This document shows positions 1,930-9,048 of a stretch of 64,000 nt of DNA, in pieces. Origin of the DNA: Paracoccaceae bacterium. GTDB lineage: Bacteria > Pseudomonadota > Alphaproteobacteria > Rhodobacterales > Rhodobacteraceae. Position 1 is the first letter of the stretch; each line of letters opens with the position of its first letter. Location of the stretch: positions 12,277-76,276 of the forward strand of contig JBFHIW010000008.1 in NCBI GenBank assembly GCA_041596235.1, in the 5' to 3' direction. The notes beneath the pieces are model-generated. The model was given only the letters and a program-made list of their open reading frames with translations. It had not been told where the DNA came from and made no database searches. A program made the translations under genes and the position numbers.

Positions 1930-3285
1930 ATGACAGCGATTTCCGTGCGGCGACGCATCTGGGGCTGGTTTTTCTTCGACTGGGCCAGCCAGCCCTACAA
2001 CACGCTTCTGATCACCTTCATCTTTGCGCCCTATGTCAAAGAATTGATGGGCGATGGCACGGCCGCGCAATCGGCATGGGGTTTCGGGATCGGTGCGGCG
2101 GGTTTCGTGATCGCGGTTCTGGCACCTTTCCTAGGCGCGCTGGCCGATACATCGGGCAACCGGCTGCGTTACATCTGGCTTTTCTCGGTCATGTATTTCG
2201 TGGGCGCCTTCGGGCTGTGGTGGGCGGCACCTGATGATTTCAACCTGGTGCTGACGCTGATCTTCTTCGCCATCGGCATGATCGGGATGGAGTTCGCGAC
2301 GATCTTCACCAACTCGATGCTGCCCGACCTTGGCCCGCGCGACCAGATCGGGCGCATTTCCGGCAATGGCTGGGCCTTCGGCTATCTGGGGGGGATGGTC
2401 ACGCTGATCATCATGCTGGCGCTGCTGGCTGAAAACGCCACGACCGGCAAGACCTTCATCGGGATCGATCCGATTCTGGGCCTTGATGCCGGCGCGCGTG
2501 AAGGCACCCGTGCCGTCGGGCCTTTGACCGCGATCTGGTACATCGTCTTCATGATCCCCTTCTTCCTCTGGGTGCGCGATCCCAAGCCGGTGCGCCCAGC
2601 CCCCGGCGCCGTGGCCCGTGCCCTGCGCGAGGTGGTCGGCACCGTGCGCGCCCTGCCGCAGTCGCCCTCGCTTTTCGCCTATCTCGCCTCGTCGATGTTC
2701 TACCGCGATGCGCTGAACGGGATGTATGTCTTTGGCGGCATCTATGCGGCGGGCGTTCTGGAATGGTCGGTGGTGGATACCGGCGTCTTCGGGATCGTGG
2801 CCATCATCTCGGGTACCGTCTTTGCCTGGATCGGGGGCAAGGCGGATGACCGTTTCGGCCCGATGCGGGTGATCCGTACCTGCATCCTCGTGTTGACCTT
2901 CGTGGCCATTTCCATCGTCTTCGTCTCGCGTGACAGCGTCTACGGCATGCCGGTCGATGCGGCCTCGAAGCTACCTGACATCACCTTCTACATCCTTGGC
3001 GCGCTAATCGGGGCTGCGGGGGGCGTGATCCAGGCGGCCAGCCGCACGATGATGGTGCGTCAGGCCAATCCCGACCGGATGACCGAAGCCTTCGGCCTCT
3101 ATGCGCTGGCGGGCAAGGCCACGTCCTTCATCGCGCCGCTGTCCATCGGCATCATGACGGCGGTCACGCAAAGTCAGCAGTTGGGCGTGACCCCGCTGAT
3201 CGTGCTTTTCCTTCTGGGTCTGTTCTTGCTAGGCTGGGTCAAACCGGATGGAGATGGAAAGGCATGGGCTGCACGCGCTACCTGA
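1930..3285 (+). CDS. MFS transporter, UMF1 (Atg22-like) family
   Basis: 451 aa, about 12 predicted TM segments. The N-terminal WGWFFFDWASQPYNTLLITFIFAPY signature is typical of UMF1-family MFS proteins. Confidence 0.75.
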   Translation: MTAISVRRRIWGWFFFDWASQPYNTLLITFIFAPYVKELMGDGTAAQSAWGFGIGAAGFVIAVLAPFLGALADTSGNRLRYIWLFSVMYFVGAFGLWWAAPDDFNLVLTLIFFAIGMIGMEFATIFTNSMLPDLGPRDQIGRISGNGWAFGYLGGMVTLIIMLALLAENATTGKTFIGIDPILGLDAGAREGTRAVGPLTAIWYIVFMIPFFLWVRDPKPVRPAPGAVARALREVVGTVRALPQSPSLFAYLASSMFYRDALNGMYVFGGIYAAGVLEWSVVDTGVFGIVAIISGTVFAWIGGKADDRFGPMRVIRTCILVLTFVAISIVFVSRDSVYGMPVDAASKLPDITFYILGALIGAAGGVIQAASRTMMVRQANPDRMTEAFGLYALAGKATSFIAPLSIGIMTAVTQSQQLGVTPLIVLFLLGLFLLGWVKPDGDGKAWAARAT

Positions 3286-4145
3286 CACTGACGATTGCCC
3301 TGTTTCTGAGTATGGCGCTGGCCGATATGGTCAGCGCACAGGCGGCCAAGCAGCTGTTCGGGGCGCAAAGAACGCCCGCCGCAGCCCAGCCTGCGCCATT
3401 CGGCGGCTATGCCAAGGGCTGCATCGCGGGTGCGGTGGAATTGCCGGAAACCGGGCCGACATGGCAGGCCATGCGCCTGTCGCGCAACCGCAACTGGGGC
3501 CATCCCGATACTGTCGCCTTTCTCAAGGACCTGTCGGCGCAGGCGGCGCGTCAGCCCGGCTGGAGCGGCCTTTATATCGGTGACATCAGCCAGCCGCGCG
3601 GTGGTCCGATGCTGACCGGGCACGCCAGCCATCAGATCGGGCTGGATGCCGACATCTGGATGTTGCCGCCACAACGCCTCAACCTGTCCCGCAACGAGCG
3701 CGAGAATATCTCGTCCATCTCGTTGCGCCGGGCCGAGGGCGCCTATGTCAATTCCAGCTGGACCCGCCAGCATCACGAGGTGATCAAGGCCGCCGCATCG
3801 GATCCGCGCGTGGCGCGGATCTTCGTCTTTCCCGGAGCCAAGGTGCAGATGTGCAAGGATGAACGCGGCGACCGCGCCTATCTGCGCAAGATACGGCCTT
3901 GGTACGGGCACCATTACCACTTCCATGTGCGCCTGAACTGCCCGCGCGGCGCGCGCGGCTGTCTGGATCAGGACACGCCGCCGCCCGGCGATGGTTGCGA
4001 CGAGGCGCAGGGATGGGTCAACAACATCCTGAACCCGCCCCCGCCCAAGCCGCGCGATCCGAACGCGCCCAAGCCCAAGCCGCGCCGTGACCTGACCCTG
4101 GCCGATCTGCCCGATCAATGCGCCGCCGTGTTGCGTGCGCGATAA
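3264..4145 (+). CDS. mepA: penicillin-insensitive murein endopeptidase MepA
   Basis: Signal peptide ([21 protein letters not shown]), then GYAKGCIAG...[15 protein letters not shown]...[13 protein letters not shown]...[17 protein letters not shown], the MepA LAS-metallopeptidase pattern. Confidence 0.85.
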
Positions 4146-5122
4146 GACAAGTATCCCTGGATTTGCGCTTGTCCCGAAGATCAAACTCAGGCTCAGGCCT
4201 GCGCAAGGGCTTTTTGGCCCTCGCGGCACTTGCGACGCTGGGCCTTGGTCTTGGCATGGCCAGCGATGCCGGTCAGATGGATGGCGTGACCTATCTGGGC
4301 AGCTATCGCTGGCAGATGGACAGTCCCGATTTCGGCGGCTTCTCGGCCATTGAACTGGATGATGCGGGTGTGCGGTTCATCGCACTGACCGACAAGGGGC
4401 ATGTGGTCGAGGGGCGGCTGGTCCGTGATGCGGCGGCGCGACTGGTGGCGGTCGAGGCGGGCCGTCTTGTCGCGTTGCGCGACATCGAAGGTGGCCCCCT
4501 GCGCAAGCGGGCGTCGGATTCCGAAGGGTTGGCGATGACGCCGCAGGGCGGCTTTTATGTCTCTTTCGAAGGCCAGCACAGGGTACGCCATTACACCGCC
4601 GTGGATCAGCCAGCGTTGCGGGTGGTCGGGCATCCCGATTTCGCCGATATGCAGATGAATTCCTCGCTCGAGGCGCTGGCCATCGACACGCGCGGGCATC
4701 TGTTCACGCTGCCCGAACGCTCGGGCGCGCTGGACCGGCCCTTTCCGGTCTACCGTTTCGACGGGCAGGGCTGGGATATCCCCTTCAGCCTGTCCCGCAG
4801 TGCAGGGTTTTTGCCGGTCGGGGCGGATTTCGGGCCCGATGGCTGGCTTTACCTGCTGGAGCGGGCCTTGACCGGGCCGGGCTTTCGCAGCCGTGTGCGC
4901 CGCTTCGACATCGCCGGGGACCGGGTGAACGCCGAGGAGGTCCTGTTCCAGACCCGTACCGGGCAGCACGACAACCTCGAAGGGATCTCGGTCTGGCAGG
5001 ACGGGACGGGGCGCATCCGGCTGACCATGATCGCCGATGACAATTTCAAATTCTTCCAGCGTACCGAACTGGTCGAATATGCTGTCACGCCCCCTCTTGC
5101 CAGTGCGCGGAACAAGCAGTAA
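4118..5122 (+). CDS. secreted esterase-like activity of phytase family protein (start codon uncertain)
   Basis: Signal-like [16 protein letters not shown], then [27 protein letters not shown]...SEGLA...LEALAID, reminiscent of the phytase-like beta-propeller domain family. The listed ATG overlaps the mepA 3' end by 28 nt, so the true start may be further downstream. Confidence 0.5.
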
Positions 5123-5193: not shown

Positions 5194-5817
5194 ATGAACC
5201 GCACGCATCTTCCCGGCATTCTTGCCATGGCCGCCATCGTCGTGGCCTCGAACATCCTTGTCCAGTTCCTCTTCGGCCAGTGGCTGACCTGGGGCGCCTT
5301 CACCTATCCTCTGGCTTTTCTTGTCACCGATGTGATGAACCGCGTCTATGGCGTGGGTCCGGCCCGTCGCGTGGTCTTTGTCGGTTTCATCGTGGGCGTT
5401 GTCTGCTCGCTGATCGGCACGCAGATCATGGGTGAATTCGGCCCGCTGGTGACGGTGCGCATCGCCATCGGTTCGGGACTGGCCTTTCTGACCGCACAGC
5501 TGCTGGACGTGGCGATCTTCGACCGCCTGCGCGAGGGCCGCTGGTGGCGCGCGCCGCTGGCCTCGACGCTGATCGGCTCTTCGGTCGATACCGCGCTGTT
5601 CTTCACCATCGCCTTCTCGGCCAGCCTGTCCTTCATCGAACCGGCAAATGACGTGTCCTGGGCGGGTGAGGTTCTTCCGCTTCTGGGTGTCGGCCCGATG
5701 GTTCCGCTCTGGGTGTCGCTGGCCGTGGCCGACTGGGGCGTCAAACTTTTGCTCGCTTTGGTGGCACTTGTGCCCTTCCGCATCATCGTGGGGGCACTTA
5801 CCCCGCGCACCACATGA
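5194..5817 (+). CDS. yhhQ: queuosine precursor transporter (VUT family, YhhQ)
   Basis: 207 aa polytopic protein. AIVVASNILVQFLFGQWLTWGAFTYPLAFLVTDVMNRVYG...SSVDTALFF matches the YhhQ/VUT pattern. Confidence 0.8.
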   Translation: MNRTHLPGILAMAAIVVASNILVQFLFGQWLTWGAFTYPLAFLVTDVMNRVYGVGPARRVVFVGFIVGVVCSLIGTQIMGEFGPLVTVRIAIGSGLAFLTAQLLDVAIFDRLREGRWWRAPLASTLIGSSVDTALFFTIAFSASLSFIEPANDVSWAGEVLPLLGVGPMVPLWVSLAVADWGVKLLLALVALVPFRIIVGALTPRTT

Positions 5818-5825
5818 TTTTGTTT

Positions 5826-6046
5826 TTGACATCTGCTGATTTTGTGGCAACCTGATCTCAGGTGAAACAATTGAAAGGAGGTGCTCTAGTGTCTAACGGG
5901 ATATTGGAGAGAGGTGTCGGAACAGTTCGGGGGGCGCAGTCCTGAGGCAGCCCTCGGGGGATGCAACATCCGAATTGGTGTGAGCCTAACCGGCCCCACC
6001 TCCGTAAGTCTCAGAGGGCCATCCGCAAGGGTGGCCCTTTCTGTTT
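5826..6046 (+). ncRNA. candidate structured leader RNA / sRNA upstream of arfB (unknown family)
   Basis: - TTGACA at 5826-5831.
- GGAGGTG at 5877-5883 is complementary to CACCTCC at 5997-6003.
- Internal hairpins CCTGAGG/CCTCGGG (5941-5958) and GGATG/CATCC (5959-5971).
- 18-codon GTG ORF at 5889-5945.
- The element ends in the intrinsic terminator at 6016-6046, 49 nt before the arfB ATG.
- I recognised no known Rfam family. Confidence 0.4.
6016..6046 (+). terminator. rho-independent terminator (9-bp stem, GCAA tetraloop, T-rich tail)
   Basis: GGGCCATCC-GCAA-GGGTGGCCC followed by TTTCTGTTT. Confidence 0.7.
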
Positions 6047-6094
6047 GCCCGCCGTCCGCGCTATGGTCGGGCGGATCACCACCGGAACAGGTTC

Positions 6095-6517
6095 ATGCTG
6101 CGCATCAACGACGACATCGCGATCGAGGATTGGGAACTGACCGAGCAGTTCATCCGCGCCAGCGGTCCCGGCGGGCAGAACGTCAACAAGGTCTCGTCGG
6201 CGGTCGAATTGCGCTTCGAAGCGGAACGCTCGCCCAACCTGCCCGCGCCGGTCAAGACGCGGCTGCGGCGGTTGGCCGGGCGGCGCTGGACCAAGGATGG
6301 CGCGATCGTCTTGCAGGTCGATGAAACCCGCAGCCAGGTCCGCAACCGCGAGATCGCGCGCGACCGTCTGGCCGATCTGATCCGTGCCGCTCTTATCGCG
6401 CCCAAGCGGCGGGTTGCGACCAAGCCCACTTTCGGGTCGGTCAAGCGCCGCATCAAGGCCAAGAAGGTGCGCGGCGAGGTCAAGGCGATGCGCGGCAAGG
6501 TCGACGGCGAAGAGTGA
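6095..6517 (+). CDS. arfB: alternative ribosome-rescue factor ArfB (peptidyl-tRNA hydrolase, YaeJ family)
   Basis: 140 aa with the GGQ motif in SGPGGQNVNKVSSAVELRF and a basic C-terminal tail (KRRIKAKKVRGEVKAMRGKV). Confidence 0.9.
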   Translation: MLRINDDIAIEDWELTEQFIRASGPGGQNVNKVSSAVELRFEAERSPNLPAPVKTRLRRLAGRRWTKDGAIVLQVDETRSQVRNREIARDRLADLIRAALIAPKRRVATKPTFGSVKRRIKAKKVRGEVKAMRGKVDGEE

Positions 6518-6650: not shown

Positions 6651-7748
6651 ATGCTGCACACGCCTTACTACCTGATCGACAAGGCACATCTGCTGCCCAA
6701 TATGGAAAAGATCGCGCATCTACGCGAAGCTTCGGGCGCCAAGGCGCTGCTGGCGCTCAAGTGCTTTGCCACATGGTCGGTCTTCGACATGATGTCCGAG
6801 TATATGGACGGCACCACGTCCTCCTCGCTGTTCGAGTTGAAGCTGGGGCGCGACAAGTTTCCCGGCGAAACCCATGCCTATTCCGTGGCCTGGGCCGATC
6901 ACGAGATCGACGAGGTGCTGGCCAATTCCGACAAGGTGATCTTCAACACCGCAGGGCAGTTGCAGCGGTTCGAGGCTGTCAGCCGTGGCCATACCCGCGG
7001 GCTGCGCGTCAATCCCGGTGTCTCGACCTCCAGCTTCGATCTGGCCGATCCCGCGCGCCCCTTCAGCCGTCTGGGCGAACATGACCCCGCAGTGATCGAA
7101 CCCGTTCTGGATATGGTCAGCGGCTTCATGTTCCACAACAATTGCGAGAATGCGGATTTCGACCGCTTCGATGCGATGCTGGGCAGTATCGAGCAGCGTT
7201 TCGGCCATCTGATCCGCAAGATGGAATGGATTTCGCTTGGTGGTGGCATCCACTTCACCGGCGAGGACTATCCGCTGGACCGTCTGGCCGAGCGCCTCAA
7301 GCGGTTCGCGGGCCAGAACGAGGTGCAGGTCTATCTTGAGCCCGGCGAGGCGGCGATCACCAAATCGACCACGCTGGAACTGACGGTTCTGGACACGCTT
7401 TTCAACGGCAAGAACCTCGCCATCGTCGACAGCTCGATCGAGGCGCATATGCTGGATCTTCTGATCTACCGCGAAAGCGCCAAGGTCGCCCCGAACGCAG
7501 GCCCCGAGGAATGGATGATCTGCGGCAAATCCTGTCTGGCCGGTGACATCTTCGGCGAGTTCCGCTTTCCGCAGCCGCTGAAAGCAGGCGACCGCATCAG
7601 CATTCAGGACGCGGCCGGTTACACGATGGTCAAGAAGAACTGGTTCAACGGCGTCAAGATGCCCGCCATCGCCATCCGCGAACTGGATGGCACAGAACGG
7701 CTGGTGCGGGATTTCGGCTACGACGATTTCGTGGCCGCCCTCTCGTGA
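6651..7748 (+). CDS. nspC: carboxynorspermidine decarboxylase
   Basis: Internal Met of ORF 6384..7748, preceded by GGGGGAAGG. MLHTPYYLIDKAHLLPNMEKI...ALKCFATWSVFD...GTTSSSLFE...CGKSCLAGDIFGEF matches NspC. Confidence 0.9.
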   Translation: MLHTPYYLIDKAHLLPNMEKIAHLREASGAKALLALKCFATWSVFDMMSEYMDGTTSSSLFELKLGRDKFPGETHAYSVAWADHEIDEVLANSDKVIFNTAGQLQRFEAVSRGHTRGLRVNPGVSTSSFDLADPARPFSRLGEHDPAVIEPVLDMVSGFMFHNNCENADFDRFDAMLGSIEQRFGHLIRKMEWISLGGGIHFTGEDYPLDRLAERLKRFAGQNEVQVYLEPGEAAITKSTTLELTVLDTLFNGKNLAIVDSSIEAHMLDLLIYRESAKVAPNAGPEEWMICGKSCLAGDIFGEFRFPQPLKAGDRISIQDAAGYTMVKKNWFNGVKMPAIAIRELDGTERLVRDFGYDDFVAALS

Positions 7749-7809
7749 TCGCTTGCGCCGCAGAGGCGCTTTCCTGCAACTGGAACCTTAAAGGAGGTCT
7801 GGTGACACC

Positions 7810-9048
7810 ATGAAACGCAACGTGCTTATCATCGGCGCCGGTGGCGTGGCTCAGGTCGTCGCGCATAAATGCGCGCAGAACAACGAGGTGCTGGGGGATC
7901 TGCATATCGCCAGCCGGACGGTCGCGAAATGTCAGGCGATCCTCGACTCTGTCCATGAAAAAGGTGCGATGAAACAGCCGGGCGTGTTCAAGGCCCATGC
8001 GCTTGACGCGCTGGATACCGCTGCCGTAGCGCAGCTGATCCGCGACACGGGTTGCCAGATCGTGATCAACGTGGGCTCCCCCTTCGTGAACATGTCGGTG
8101 CTGCAGGCCTGCATCGAAACAGGTGCGGCCTATATGGACACGGCCATTCACGAAGATCCCGCCAAGATCTGCGAGACCCCGCCCTGGTATGGCAATTACG
8201 AATGGAAACGCCGCGAGGCCTGCGAAAAGGCGGGCGTCACGGCCATCCTTGGCATCGGTTTCGATCCGGGCGTGGTCAATGCCTACGCGCGGCTTGCGGC
8301 GGATGACTACATGGATACCGTCACTTCGATCGACATCGTGGACATCAACGCAGGGTCGCACGGGCGCTGGTTCTCGACCAATTTCGACCCGGAAATCAAC
8401 TTCCGCGAATTCACCGGCACGGTCTACAGCTGGCAGAACGGCGCATGGCAGACCAACACCATGTTCGAAGTGGGCCGCGAATGGGATCTGCCCGTCGTGG
8501 GCAAACAGAAAGCCTACATGACCGGCCATGACGAGGTGCATTCATTGGCCGCCAACTATCCGGGTGCCGATGTGCGCTTCTGGATGGGCTTTGGCGATCA
8601 CTACATCAACGTCTTCACCGTCCTGAAGAACCTCGGCCTGCTGTCGGAACAGCCGGTGAAAACCGCCGAGGGTCTTGAGGTGGTGCCGCTCAAGGTCGTC
8701 AAGGCCGTGCTGCCCGACCCCTCCAGCCTTGCGCCGGATTATGTGGGCAAGACCTGCATCGGCGATCTGGTGAAGGGCACCAAGGATGGCAAACCCGTTG
8801 AGGTGTTCATCTACAACGTCGCCGATCACAAGGACGCCTATAATGAGGTCGGCAGCCAGGGCATTTCCTATACCGCAGGCGTGCCCCCGGTCGCCGCCGC
8901 CATGCTGATCGCCAATGGCACCTGGGACGCCGGCACCATGGTCAATGTCGAGGAACTGGACCCCAAGCCGTTCCTGACGCTTCTGGACCAGATCGGTCTG
9001 CCCACCCGCGTCAAGGATGCGGCGGGCGACCGTGCGTGGAACGCGTAA
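7810..9048 (+). CDS. carboxynorspermidine synthase/dehydrogenase (saccharopine dehydrogenase family)
   Basis: 412 aa with Rossmann motif VLIIGAGGVAQVVAHK, and ...GFDPGVVNAY...TGHDEVHSL... typical of CANSDH. It lies adjacent to nspC. Confidence 0.85.
   Translation: MKRNVLIIGAGGVAQVVAHKCAQNNEVLGDLHIASRTVAKCQAILDSVHEKGAMKQPGVFKAHALDALDTAAVAQLIRDTGCQIVINVGSPFVNMSVLQACIETGAAYMDTAIHEDPAKICETPPWYGNYEWKRREACEKAGVTAILGIGFDPGVVNAYARLAADDYMDTVTSIDIVDINAGSHGRWFSTNFDPEINFREFTGTVYSWQNGAWQTNTMFEVGREWDLPVVGKQKAYMTGHDEVHSLAANYPGADVRFWMGFGDHYINVFTVLKNLGLLSEQPVKTAEGLEVVPLKVVKAVLPDPSSLAPDYVGKTCIGDLVKGTKDGKPVEVFIYNVADHKDAYNEVGSQGISYTAGVPPVAAAMLIANGTWDAGTMVNVEELDPKPFLTLLDQIGLPTRVKDAAGDRAWNA

Follow-up and report, generated by a model that had tools for sequence, protein, structure and literature searches.

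A candidate CC2171-like small RNA gene in the yhhQ-arfB spacer of a Paracoccaceae bacterium

Anatomy of the yhhQ-arfB spacer

The spacer between yhhQ and arfB, both on the + strand, was analyzed in a 64-kb stretch of a Paracoccaceae bacterium genome (64,000 nucleotides (nt) of contig JBFHIW010000008.1, hereafter “the window”). The original prediction had described this spacer as a structured leader or small RNA (sRNA) placed to regulate arfB, a ribosome-rescue gene, in cis. All of the individual features that it named were recovered: the 277-nt spacer itself, the TTGACA hexamer, a Shine-Dalgarno (SD) core GGAGGTG, a GTG-initiated open reading frame (ORF), an internal GAGGTG, the anti-SD CACCTCC, and an intrinsic terminator at 6016-6046. 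In the reading favored here, which was given a probability of about 0.7, the spacer is a free-standing small RNA gene, a divergent Rhodobacterales branch of the CC2171/CCNA_R0051 superfamily, and arfB is a downstream passenger.

For comparative work, a 22-nt motif from the 5' end of the element, GAAAGGAGGTGNTCNAGTGTCT, was scanned against 185,579 species genomes; at least 120 species matched. All matches listed were in Alphaproteobacteria and occurred once per locus; behind each came a short GTG ORF and, further on, an intrinsic terminator. They came from Rhodobacterales, Bradyrhizobium, Afipia, Xanthobacteraceae, Methylobacterium, Bosea, Ancylobacter, Caulobacterales, and Acetobacteraceae. 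Thirty-three non-identical Rhodobacterales homologues were aligned, and their consensus fold was obtained with RNAalifold; all counts out of 33 refer to this set. Three subtypes were distinguished: the Rhodobacterales type, the Bradyrhizobium type, and the O-type (Caulobacter/Methylobacterium/Bosea and others). The promoter, SD, ORF, anti-SD, and terminator were all conserved across the 33 homologues. The positions of these parts are collected in Table 1.

Table 1. Predicted parts of the element and its flanking genes, in window coordinates
Feature	Coordinates	Strand	Basis and remarks
yhhQ-family gene (context)	5194-5817	+	Pfam Vut_1; stop 9 nt before the -35; upstream neighbor in most Rhodobacterales homologues
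Putative -35 hexamer TTGACA	5826-5831	+	perfect in 27/33 Rhodobacterales homologues, 46-50 nt before GAAAGG
Putative extended -10: TGTGG, then hexamer CAACCT	5843-5853	+	16-nt spacer from the -35
Predicted transcription start (tentative)	5860-5862	+	promoter geometry
Full predicted transcript, ~185 nt, Rhodobacterales-type CC2171-like RNA	5862-6046	+	RF01867 match at 5865-6037, and homologues
Extended SD, GAAAGGAGGTGCTCTAG	5873-5889	+	core GGAGGTG at 5877-5883; invariant over at least 120 alphaproteobacterial loci, in part by construction of the search pattern
P2 hairpin over the GTG start	5885-5893:5900-5908	+	RNAalifold; pairs kept in 32-33/33; one-sided wobble changes only
Micro-ORF, GTG start, 18 codons (MSNGILERGVGTVRGAQS)	5889-5945	+	17-22-codon ORF in 33/33 homologues
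Second SD-like GAGGTG, within the ORF	5911-5916	+	inside the conserved unpaired block GGAGAGAGGTGTCGGAACAG; conserved at every codon position
Inner domain: P3 (5923-5930:5970-5977) and P4 (5938-5941:5959-5962)	5923-5977	+	compensatory changes; variable apical hairpin carries the stop codon
Anti-SD CACCTCC, P1 partner of the SD at 5877-5883	5997-6003	+	closes the whole domain; pairs kept in 31-33/33
Intrinsic terminator: 12-bp stem (6013-6024:6029-6040), GCAA loop, tail TTTCTGTTT	6013-6046	+	covarying stem
arfB (context)	6095-6517	+	RF-1 domain, 140 aa; 48 nt past the terminator tail

In 25 of the 33 homologues, TGTG[GCT] was located 17 nt past the start of TTGACA (an 11-nt gap) and was followed by CANNCT; on its letters, this block was read as a putative sigma-70-type extended -10. 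The Rfam model of CC2171 begins 8-9 nt before GAAAGG, near the tentative start at 5860-5862. Promoter-like sequences were also noted 40-60 nt before GAAAGG in the other subtypes: CTTAAC-N17-CTATAT in the Bradyrhizobium type (L011-L117) and CTTGC-N~17-CCCATAT-like sequences at many other loci (O-type), both of which resemble the alphaproteobacterial housekeeping consensus as well as RpoH-type promoters.

The extended SD motif GAAAGGAGGTGNTCNAG occurred once in the window, compared to an expectation of 0.08 copies. Presumably, the extended SD is complementary to the 3' end of 16S rRNA, as represented by the universal 16S reverse primer (AAGGAGGTGATCCAGCC); we take GAAAGGAGGTGATCCAG to be the region of that primer. 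The terminator core was also picked up by a pattern scan of the window. The terminator in the original prediction was confirmed along with its GCAA loop, but its stem comprises 12 pairs rather than 9. Likewise, the two small hairpins described there (CCTGAGG/CCTCGGG and GGATG/CATCC) are present, but they lie in the variable apex of the inner domain; the helices that are conserved are P3 and P4.

Conservation of the fold and of the micro-ORF

The minimum free energy (MFE) of a 191-nt stretch of this region was -86.1 kcal/mol (z = -3.74), and none of 200 shuffled sequences folded as well. Compensatory changes were seen in the inner domain and the terminator. At P3 alignment columns 68/116, for example, the pairs were CG (10), AU (7), GC (4), GU (4), and UA (3). 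Each pair of P4 featured 7-12 double changes, and those of the terminator stem up to 9. The predicted pairing of the anti-SD with the SD (P1) held up; when the 33 homologues were folded one at a time, it was part of the MFE structure in 28. The anti-SD itself occurred as CACCUCC or CAUCUCC (CAYCUCC) or as CGCCUCC, each of which is wobble-compatible with the invariant SD via G-U pairs. The alternative partner proposed for the anti-SD, GAGGTG at 5911-5916, could pair in 86% of cells, but no covariation supported that helix.

The other subtypes were examined for equivalent pairings. In the Bradyrhizobium type, the helices GAGGUGA:UCACCUC and CAGUGU:GCGCUG formed in 16 of 16 sequences, and the anti-SD was within the ORF. 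In the Caulobacter/Methylobacterium type, the segment CUGGAUC...CCUCC lies within the ORF, resembles the 3' end of 16S rRNA, and can pair with GGAGGUGAUCCAG. For the O-type sub-helices, 94% and 80% of cells were paired, compared to 33-55% when the partner was slid. The SD/start region was thus locked in all three subtypes, each time by a different internal partner. That one invariant strand should have three internal partners suggests that its invariance is imposed from outside, and the 3' tail of 16S rRNA suggests itself as the obvious candidate for this constraint.

At every locus listed, a GTG ORF was positioned behind the SD at optimal spacing. Its length was 17-22 codons among Rhodobacterales and 14 codons for the Bradyrhizobium type; elsewhere, nearly every ORF had 20-30 codons, with a single outlier of 43. 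The identity of the stop codon varied (TGA, TAG, or TAA), and its column was the same in nearly all Rhodobacterales and Bradyrhizobium-type sequences. In the O-type, the distance from the GTG to the motif C[CT]TGG[AG] was 36, 39, 42, 45, 48, or 57 nt; the motif was in frame in 48 of 48 cases, meaning that the intervening insertions and deletions are multiples of three. Conservation of the frame and the stop supports translation of the micro-ORF in the present element, whose product would be (M)SNGILERGVGTVRGAQS followed by the stop. In the comparison across Rhodobacterales that had been proposed with the original prediction, the micro-ORF is kept, and P3, P4, and the terminator stem covary.

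As had been predicted, the micro-ORF is rich in A/T-ending codons; its G+C content at third codon positions (GC3) is 0.58, compared to 0.79 for yhhQ and 0.87 for arfB. Selection for slow codons in a leader peptide, as had been proposed, explains these endings less well than constraint on the nucleotides themselves, through pairing and complementarity to 16S rRNA: in the Rhodobacterales ORF, conservation is as strong at third positions as at the first two, the majority of changes are non-synonymous, and the rare codons fall on nucleotides that are paired or conserved. Across the three subtypes, the peptides (MSRVILERGVGTVRG, MSxxKRCHLAGIAR, and MSHCLSPRS..TWILAS) have only Met-Ser in common, and the C-terminal third of the Rhodobacterales peptide varies along with the compensatory RNA pairs. 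As far as aligned sequences can tell, what selection appears to preserve is ribosome loading and translation, along with the fold of the RNA, rather than the amino acids of the peptide.

Relationship to the CC2171 family and expression

With Rfam at gathering thresholds, no match was obtained in the whole 64-kb window. A permissive scan returned RF01867 (CC2171) at 5865-6037 with 34.2 bits and an E-value of 1.7e-5. The aligned parts were the first 30 nt (AAACAAUUGAAAGGAGGUGCUCUAGUGUCU, posterior ~1) and the terminator (model positions 133-159); the conserved 5' block of RF01867 is cAAcaAucGAAAGGAGGUGAUCCAGUGUCU, and it is present in the window copy as AAACAAUUGAAAGGAGGUGCUCUAGUGUCU. The original prediction had been unable to match the RNA to a known family; this match, taken with the shared 5' motif and architecture, overturns that statement. 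Other weak Rfam matches (CRISPR-DR27, suhB/mmgR, and Mcr7; E-values of 0.8-2.8) were dismissed as chance or terminator-only similarities.

The element and CC2171 have several properties in common. The 5' 30 nt are near-identical (a CA-rich leader, GAAAGGAGGUGAUCCAG, GUG, and UCU), and a short ORF is located right behind this block. Both RNAs are 170-210 nt long and end at a GC-rich intrinsic terminator, and a single copy was recovered per locus. In each of them, a complementary stretch within the RNA itself pairs with the SD/start region. The differences lie in the interior and the surroundings: the closing helix CAUUGUC:GACAAUG, which abuts the terminator in the O-type, is absent in the window type, which has GGAGGUG:CAYCUCC instead. 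The anti-SD of the window type is downstream of the ORF and not inside it, the 18-codon ORF encodes an unrelated peptide, and the synteny yhhQ-element-arfB is fixed.

Eight O-type loci (from Caulobacter, Methylobacterium, and Bosea) had RF01867 scores of 88-120 bits, above the gathering score of 75 bits. Six other Rhodobacterales loci, three of the Bradyrhizobium type, and one from Ancylobacter were below it. The last four (L047, L078, and L043 of the Bradyrhizobium/Afipia type and L031 from Ancylobacter) are clear relatives of CC2171, yet they are sub-threshold for RF01867. They share its 5' motif and its terminator, and their micro-ORF is 14 codons long in the first three and 25 in L031. Since scoring and sub-threshold loci share the motif, the window element would belong to a superfamily that Rfam captures only in part. 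The CC2171 family would then extend past the Rfam threshold into Rhodobacterales, Bradyrhizobium-type, and Ancylobacter-type genomes, and would be under-annotated in several orders. The nearest genome among the matches listed was that of Seohaeicola saemankumensis (L068), whose ArfB is 97% identical and whose micro-peptide is identical to that of the window. The ArfB sequence of the window itself was found only in metagenome assemblies.

Expression, an own promoter, and translation have been demonstrated for the Caulobacter homologue only. R0051 of that organism has its own promoter, and the gene downstream of it is convergent (PMC6237742). The Caulobacter RNA is 193-209 nt long and has a triphosphate 5' end; its start-site signal peaks in swarmer cells. 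It is induced 4.4-fold by mitomycin C, a non-specific response. Northern blots have revealed CC2171 RNA in both Caulobacter and Methylorubrum. With respect to translation, Schrader et al. (2014) equated the Landt probe CC2171_CC2172 with CCNA_R0051 and annotated it “Translated CCNA_03965” (PMC4117421). A CCNA_03965::YFP (yellow fluorescent protein) strain was built as verification in Caulobacter, and in the set of small-coding-sequence fusions that included CCNA_03965, four of four gave bands at the expected size (PMC4117421). The 22-aa ORF of a Caulobacter locus carries an NCBI annotation, as hypothetical protein WP_252635264.1 of Caulobacter segnis.

Public RNA runs were consulted through Logan as assembled contigs from metatranscriptomes and from one related isolate, a form of data in which DNA carry-over is inseparable from read-through. 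In a salt-lake metatranscriptome (X26), an adapter-flanked insert of 133-135 nt spanned 5862/5864-5996 with two mismatches. Contigs from two further runs (X22 and X24) ended at 5995/5996, directly 5' of the anti-SD CACCTCC. The end point shared by these three independent libraries may reflect 3' processing of the RNA, or it may be an artefact of assembly or of reverse transcription. The RNA contigs are compatible with both a start near 5862 and read-through.

Interpretation, alternatives, and genomic neighbors

Among the matches listed, an upstream yhhQ and a downstream arfB were found only in Rhodobacterales (33 loci), and not always even there. The element and arfB were adjacent and co-oriented at 22 of the 33 loci. 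The distance from the terminator tail to the arfB start was 10, 12, 25, 27, 27, and 37 nt in six relatives and 48 nt in the window; overall, the gap in relatives was 10-120 nt, and its sequence was not conserved. A pattern scan for promoter-like sites in the window gap (6046-6095) returned none. Since the gap in several relatives is too short for a separate promoter, arfB is probably expressed by terminator read-through, either from the promoter of the element or from yhhQ. Roseobacter arfB thus appears to depend on read-through from the promoter of the element, which is a concrete arrangement.

Departures from this synteny were also recorded. At L001 and L051, a transporter ORF was positioned between the element and arfB; it was identified by eye as an EamA/DMT-type transporter (+200 to +1070 from GAAAGG, ~25 nt past the terminator), and the element can accordingly head a two-gene downstream unit. 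A convergent gene was inserted at L088, and an amidase was found downstream at L065. At L021 (JAACVA010000007.1), a co-oriented smpB, the partner of transfer-messenger RNA, was observed right after the terminator (+223 to +700 from GAAAGG) in place of arfB. Two ribosome-rescue genes, arfB and smpB, hence take the same slot in different lineages; as a single case, this swap is suggestive. At L007, an smpB was noted ~2.5 kb upstream of the element. Outside Rhodobacterales, the neighbors were unrelated, and clustering yielded only small lineage-specific clusters (YaiI-like and acyl-CoA dehydrogenase). GC3-based calling of downstream genes was unreliable, having mis-stranded arfB, and was retained only as a measure of the broad strand mix. 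Given such varied contexts across Alphaproteobacteria, among them the convergent gene downstream in Caulobacter, the element is not arfB-specific, and the original proposal of a cis-regulator dedicated to arfB was abandoned. For annotation purposes, the element should not be labelled an arfB riboswitch or attenuator.

Three other explanations were weighed against that of a free-standing small RNA gene. The original prediction had seen a classic attenuation layout, and a cis-acting, translation-coupled attenuator, in which ribosome speed or availability on the micro-ORF would set terminator formation and thereby tune rescue, would fit the frequent adjacency to arfB, the gaps of only 10-27 nt at some loci (where arfB must be read through or co-transcribed), the smpB in the arfB slot of the metagenome-assembled genome L021, the isolate RNA contigs that run unbroken from yhhQ into arfB, and the rare A/T-ending codons. 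It is nevertheless unlikely. No antiterminator was predicted, and in the consensus fold the terminator forms on its own, apart from the other helices. In constrained folding, 91-93% of the terminator pairs were kept whether the ORF was left open or was blocked up to codon 8, at the stop, or along its whole length; the terminator was retained in 32 of the 33 homologues, and the remaining one lost it in every state. Because the terminator is thus predicted to form regardless of ribosome position, classical attenuation was not supported by this modeling. The stop codon is ~70 nt before the terminator stem, codon identities are set by pairing and are not synonymous-variable, and the peptide contains neither a run of a regulatory amino acid nor an arrest motif. 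Moreover, the unit is kept where no arfB follows (L021, L065, L116, and all non-Rhodobacterales loci listed); in Caulobacter, the gene that follows is convergent.

That the 18-aa peptide is itself the effector, with the RNA fold serving only stability or translational control, was judged slightly more doubtful still. The conserved frame and stop, the translation reported in Caulobacter, and the well-conserved core ILERGVGTV within Rhodobacterales speak for it. They are outweighed by the lack of relationship among the subtype peptides beyond Met-Ser, by third positions as conserved as first and second ones (with A/T endings kept against the flanking GC3 values of 0.79 and 0.87), and by a C-terminal third that varies freely with the compensatory pairs. 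The least probable of the alternatives is a purely non-coding RNA that acts in trans by base-pairing, with the SD-like motif and the ORF incidental. Rfam lists the family as an sRNA, the RNA was seen on Northern blots in Caulobacter and Methylorubrum, and a conserved C/U-rich block (CCTAACYGGCCCAYCTCC, 5983-6003) looks like the kind of seed directed at ribosome-binding sites and could act as one; yet the frame is kept in 48 of 48 cases despite insertions and deletions, a stop is always kept while its identity varies, the SD-to-start spacing is optimal, and ribosome profiling and a YFP fusion have been published for Caulobacter. The “sRNA” half of the original description stands: the RNA is structured, its SD looks functional and pairs with an anti-SD, its micro-ORF is genuine, and it ends in a terminator.

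Several observations weigh against the free-standing small RNA gene as well. The RF01867 match scored 34 bits compared to the gathering score of 75, and the middle part of the element was unaligned. Changes in P1 were one-sided and of the wobble kind only, such that pairing is compatible but unproven; the SD:anti-SD helix shows one-sided changes only because the SD never varies. CCNA_03965 is presumably, though not certainly, the GTG ORF that follows the SD, and on an RNA with so strong an SD some of the ribosome footprints could stem from binding that does not lead to translation. In the related isolate, contigs were continuous from yhhQ through the element into arfB, and data at the contig level are ambiguous. 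Finally, searches of the literature on R0051, CCNA_03965, or an arfB-linked sRNA in Rhodobacter turned up nothing functional. What the analysis shows directly is the anatomy and distribution of the element, its covariation, and its conservation, including that of the frame and the stop; toehold opening, arfB read-through, and any physiological role are what we infer beyond these.

Under the preferred reading of a free-standing small RNA gene, a sigma-70-type promoter (TTGACA, a 16-nt spacer, and a TGTGn extended -10) would give rise to a ~185-nt RNA that ends at the strong intrinsic terminator. A short CA-rich leader would be followed by 11-17 nt complementary to the 16S 3' end, the GUG start, and the 18-codon ORF. 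The RNA would be self-closed, with its SD shut by the downstream anti-SD (P1) and its start codon held in P2. A 30S subunit would have to push aside the internal anti-SD, which the extra complementarity, with its unpaired GAAAG “toehold”, would make possible, and the ORF would then be translated. As a lineage-specific passenger, arfB would be expressed from the same promoter by partial read-through of the terminator.

What is invariant across orders is the 16S-complementary ribosome-binding region, not the peptide or the inner fold, and this points to the ribosome as the partner. A more far-reaching proposal casts the RNA as a sensor, or a sponge, for free 30S subunits: the 16S tail would open it by toehold displacement at the 13-17-nt complementary site, and in Rhodobacterales it would have been recruited as a transcriptional entry point for the rescue genes arfB and, in one lineage, smpB. 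This proposal is speculative and rather improbable. If true, such a 30S-gated unit would tie the supply of rescue factors to the availability of ribosomes, through a mechanism distinct from classical attenuation.

The element was also compared to known systems. Like the trpL-type attenuators (including the released rnTrpL/peTrpL of Sinorhizobium), it combines a small ORF, a structured RNA, and a terminator upstream of a co-oriented gene, and in that type, too, the released terminated RNA can be an entity of its own; unlike them, it has no predicted antiterminator, no regulatory codon runs, a stop far from the terminator, and no constant downstream gene. The dual-function sRNAs SgrS/SgrT, RNAIII/hld, and SR1/SR1P are similarly short, abundant, terminator-ended RNAs that are structured and (for the present element, putatively) translated. 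The element differs from them in lacking a known base-pairing target and in a peptide that diverges between orders; what stays constant in it is the ribosome-binding region. With the ROSE and fourU thermometers it shares an SD and start codon that are locked in helices by an internal anti-SD and must be opened for initiation. In contrast to those, only a micro-ORF of 14-26 codons is controlled, the element is not the 5' untranslated region of a heat-shock gene, and 13-17 nt of 16S complementarity far exceed what a thermometer needs; scans of the window at gathering and permissive thresholds returned no match to Rfam ROSE or fourU.

Three further candidates were considered and dropped: a type I toxin (no antisense partner or hydrophobic peptide in the Rhodobacterales subtype), a CsrA sponge (no repeated GGA loops), and a ribosomal-protein leader (no constant downstream gene).

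Other genes near the element were inspected in passing. A phytase-like protein with an esterase domain is encoded at 4118-5122, a pyridoxal phosphate-dependent decarboxylase resembling carboxynorspermidine decarboxylase at 6651-7748, and a look-alike of saccharopine/carboxynorspermidine dehydrogenase (identified by eye only) at 7810-9048. The genes around the element (3264-5122 and 6651-9048) were taken as an ordinary polyamine-synthesis context, unrelated to it.

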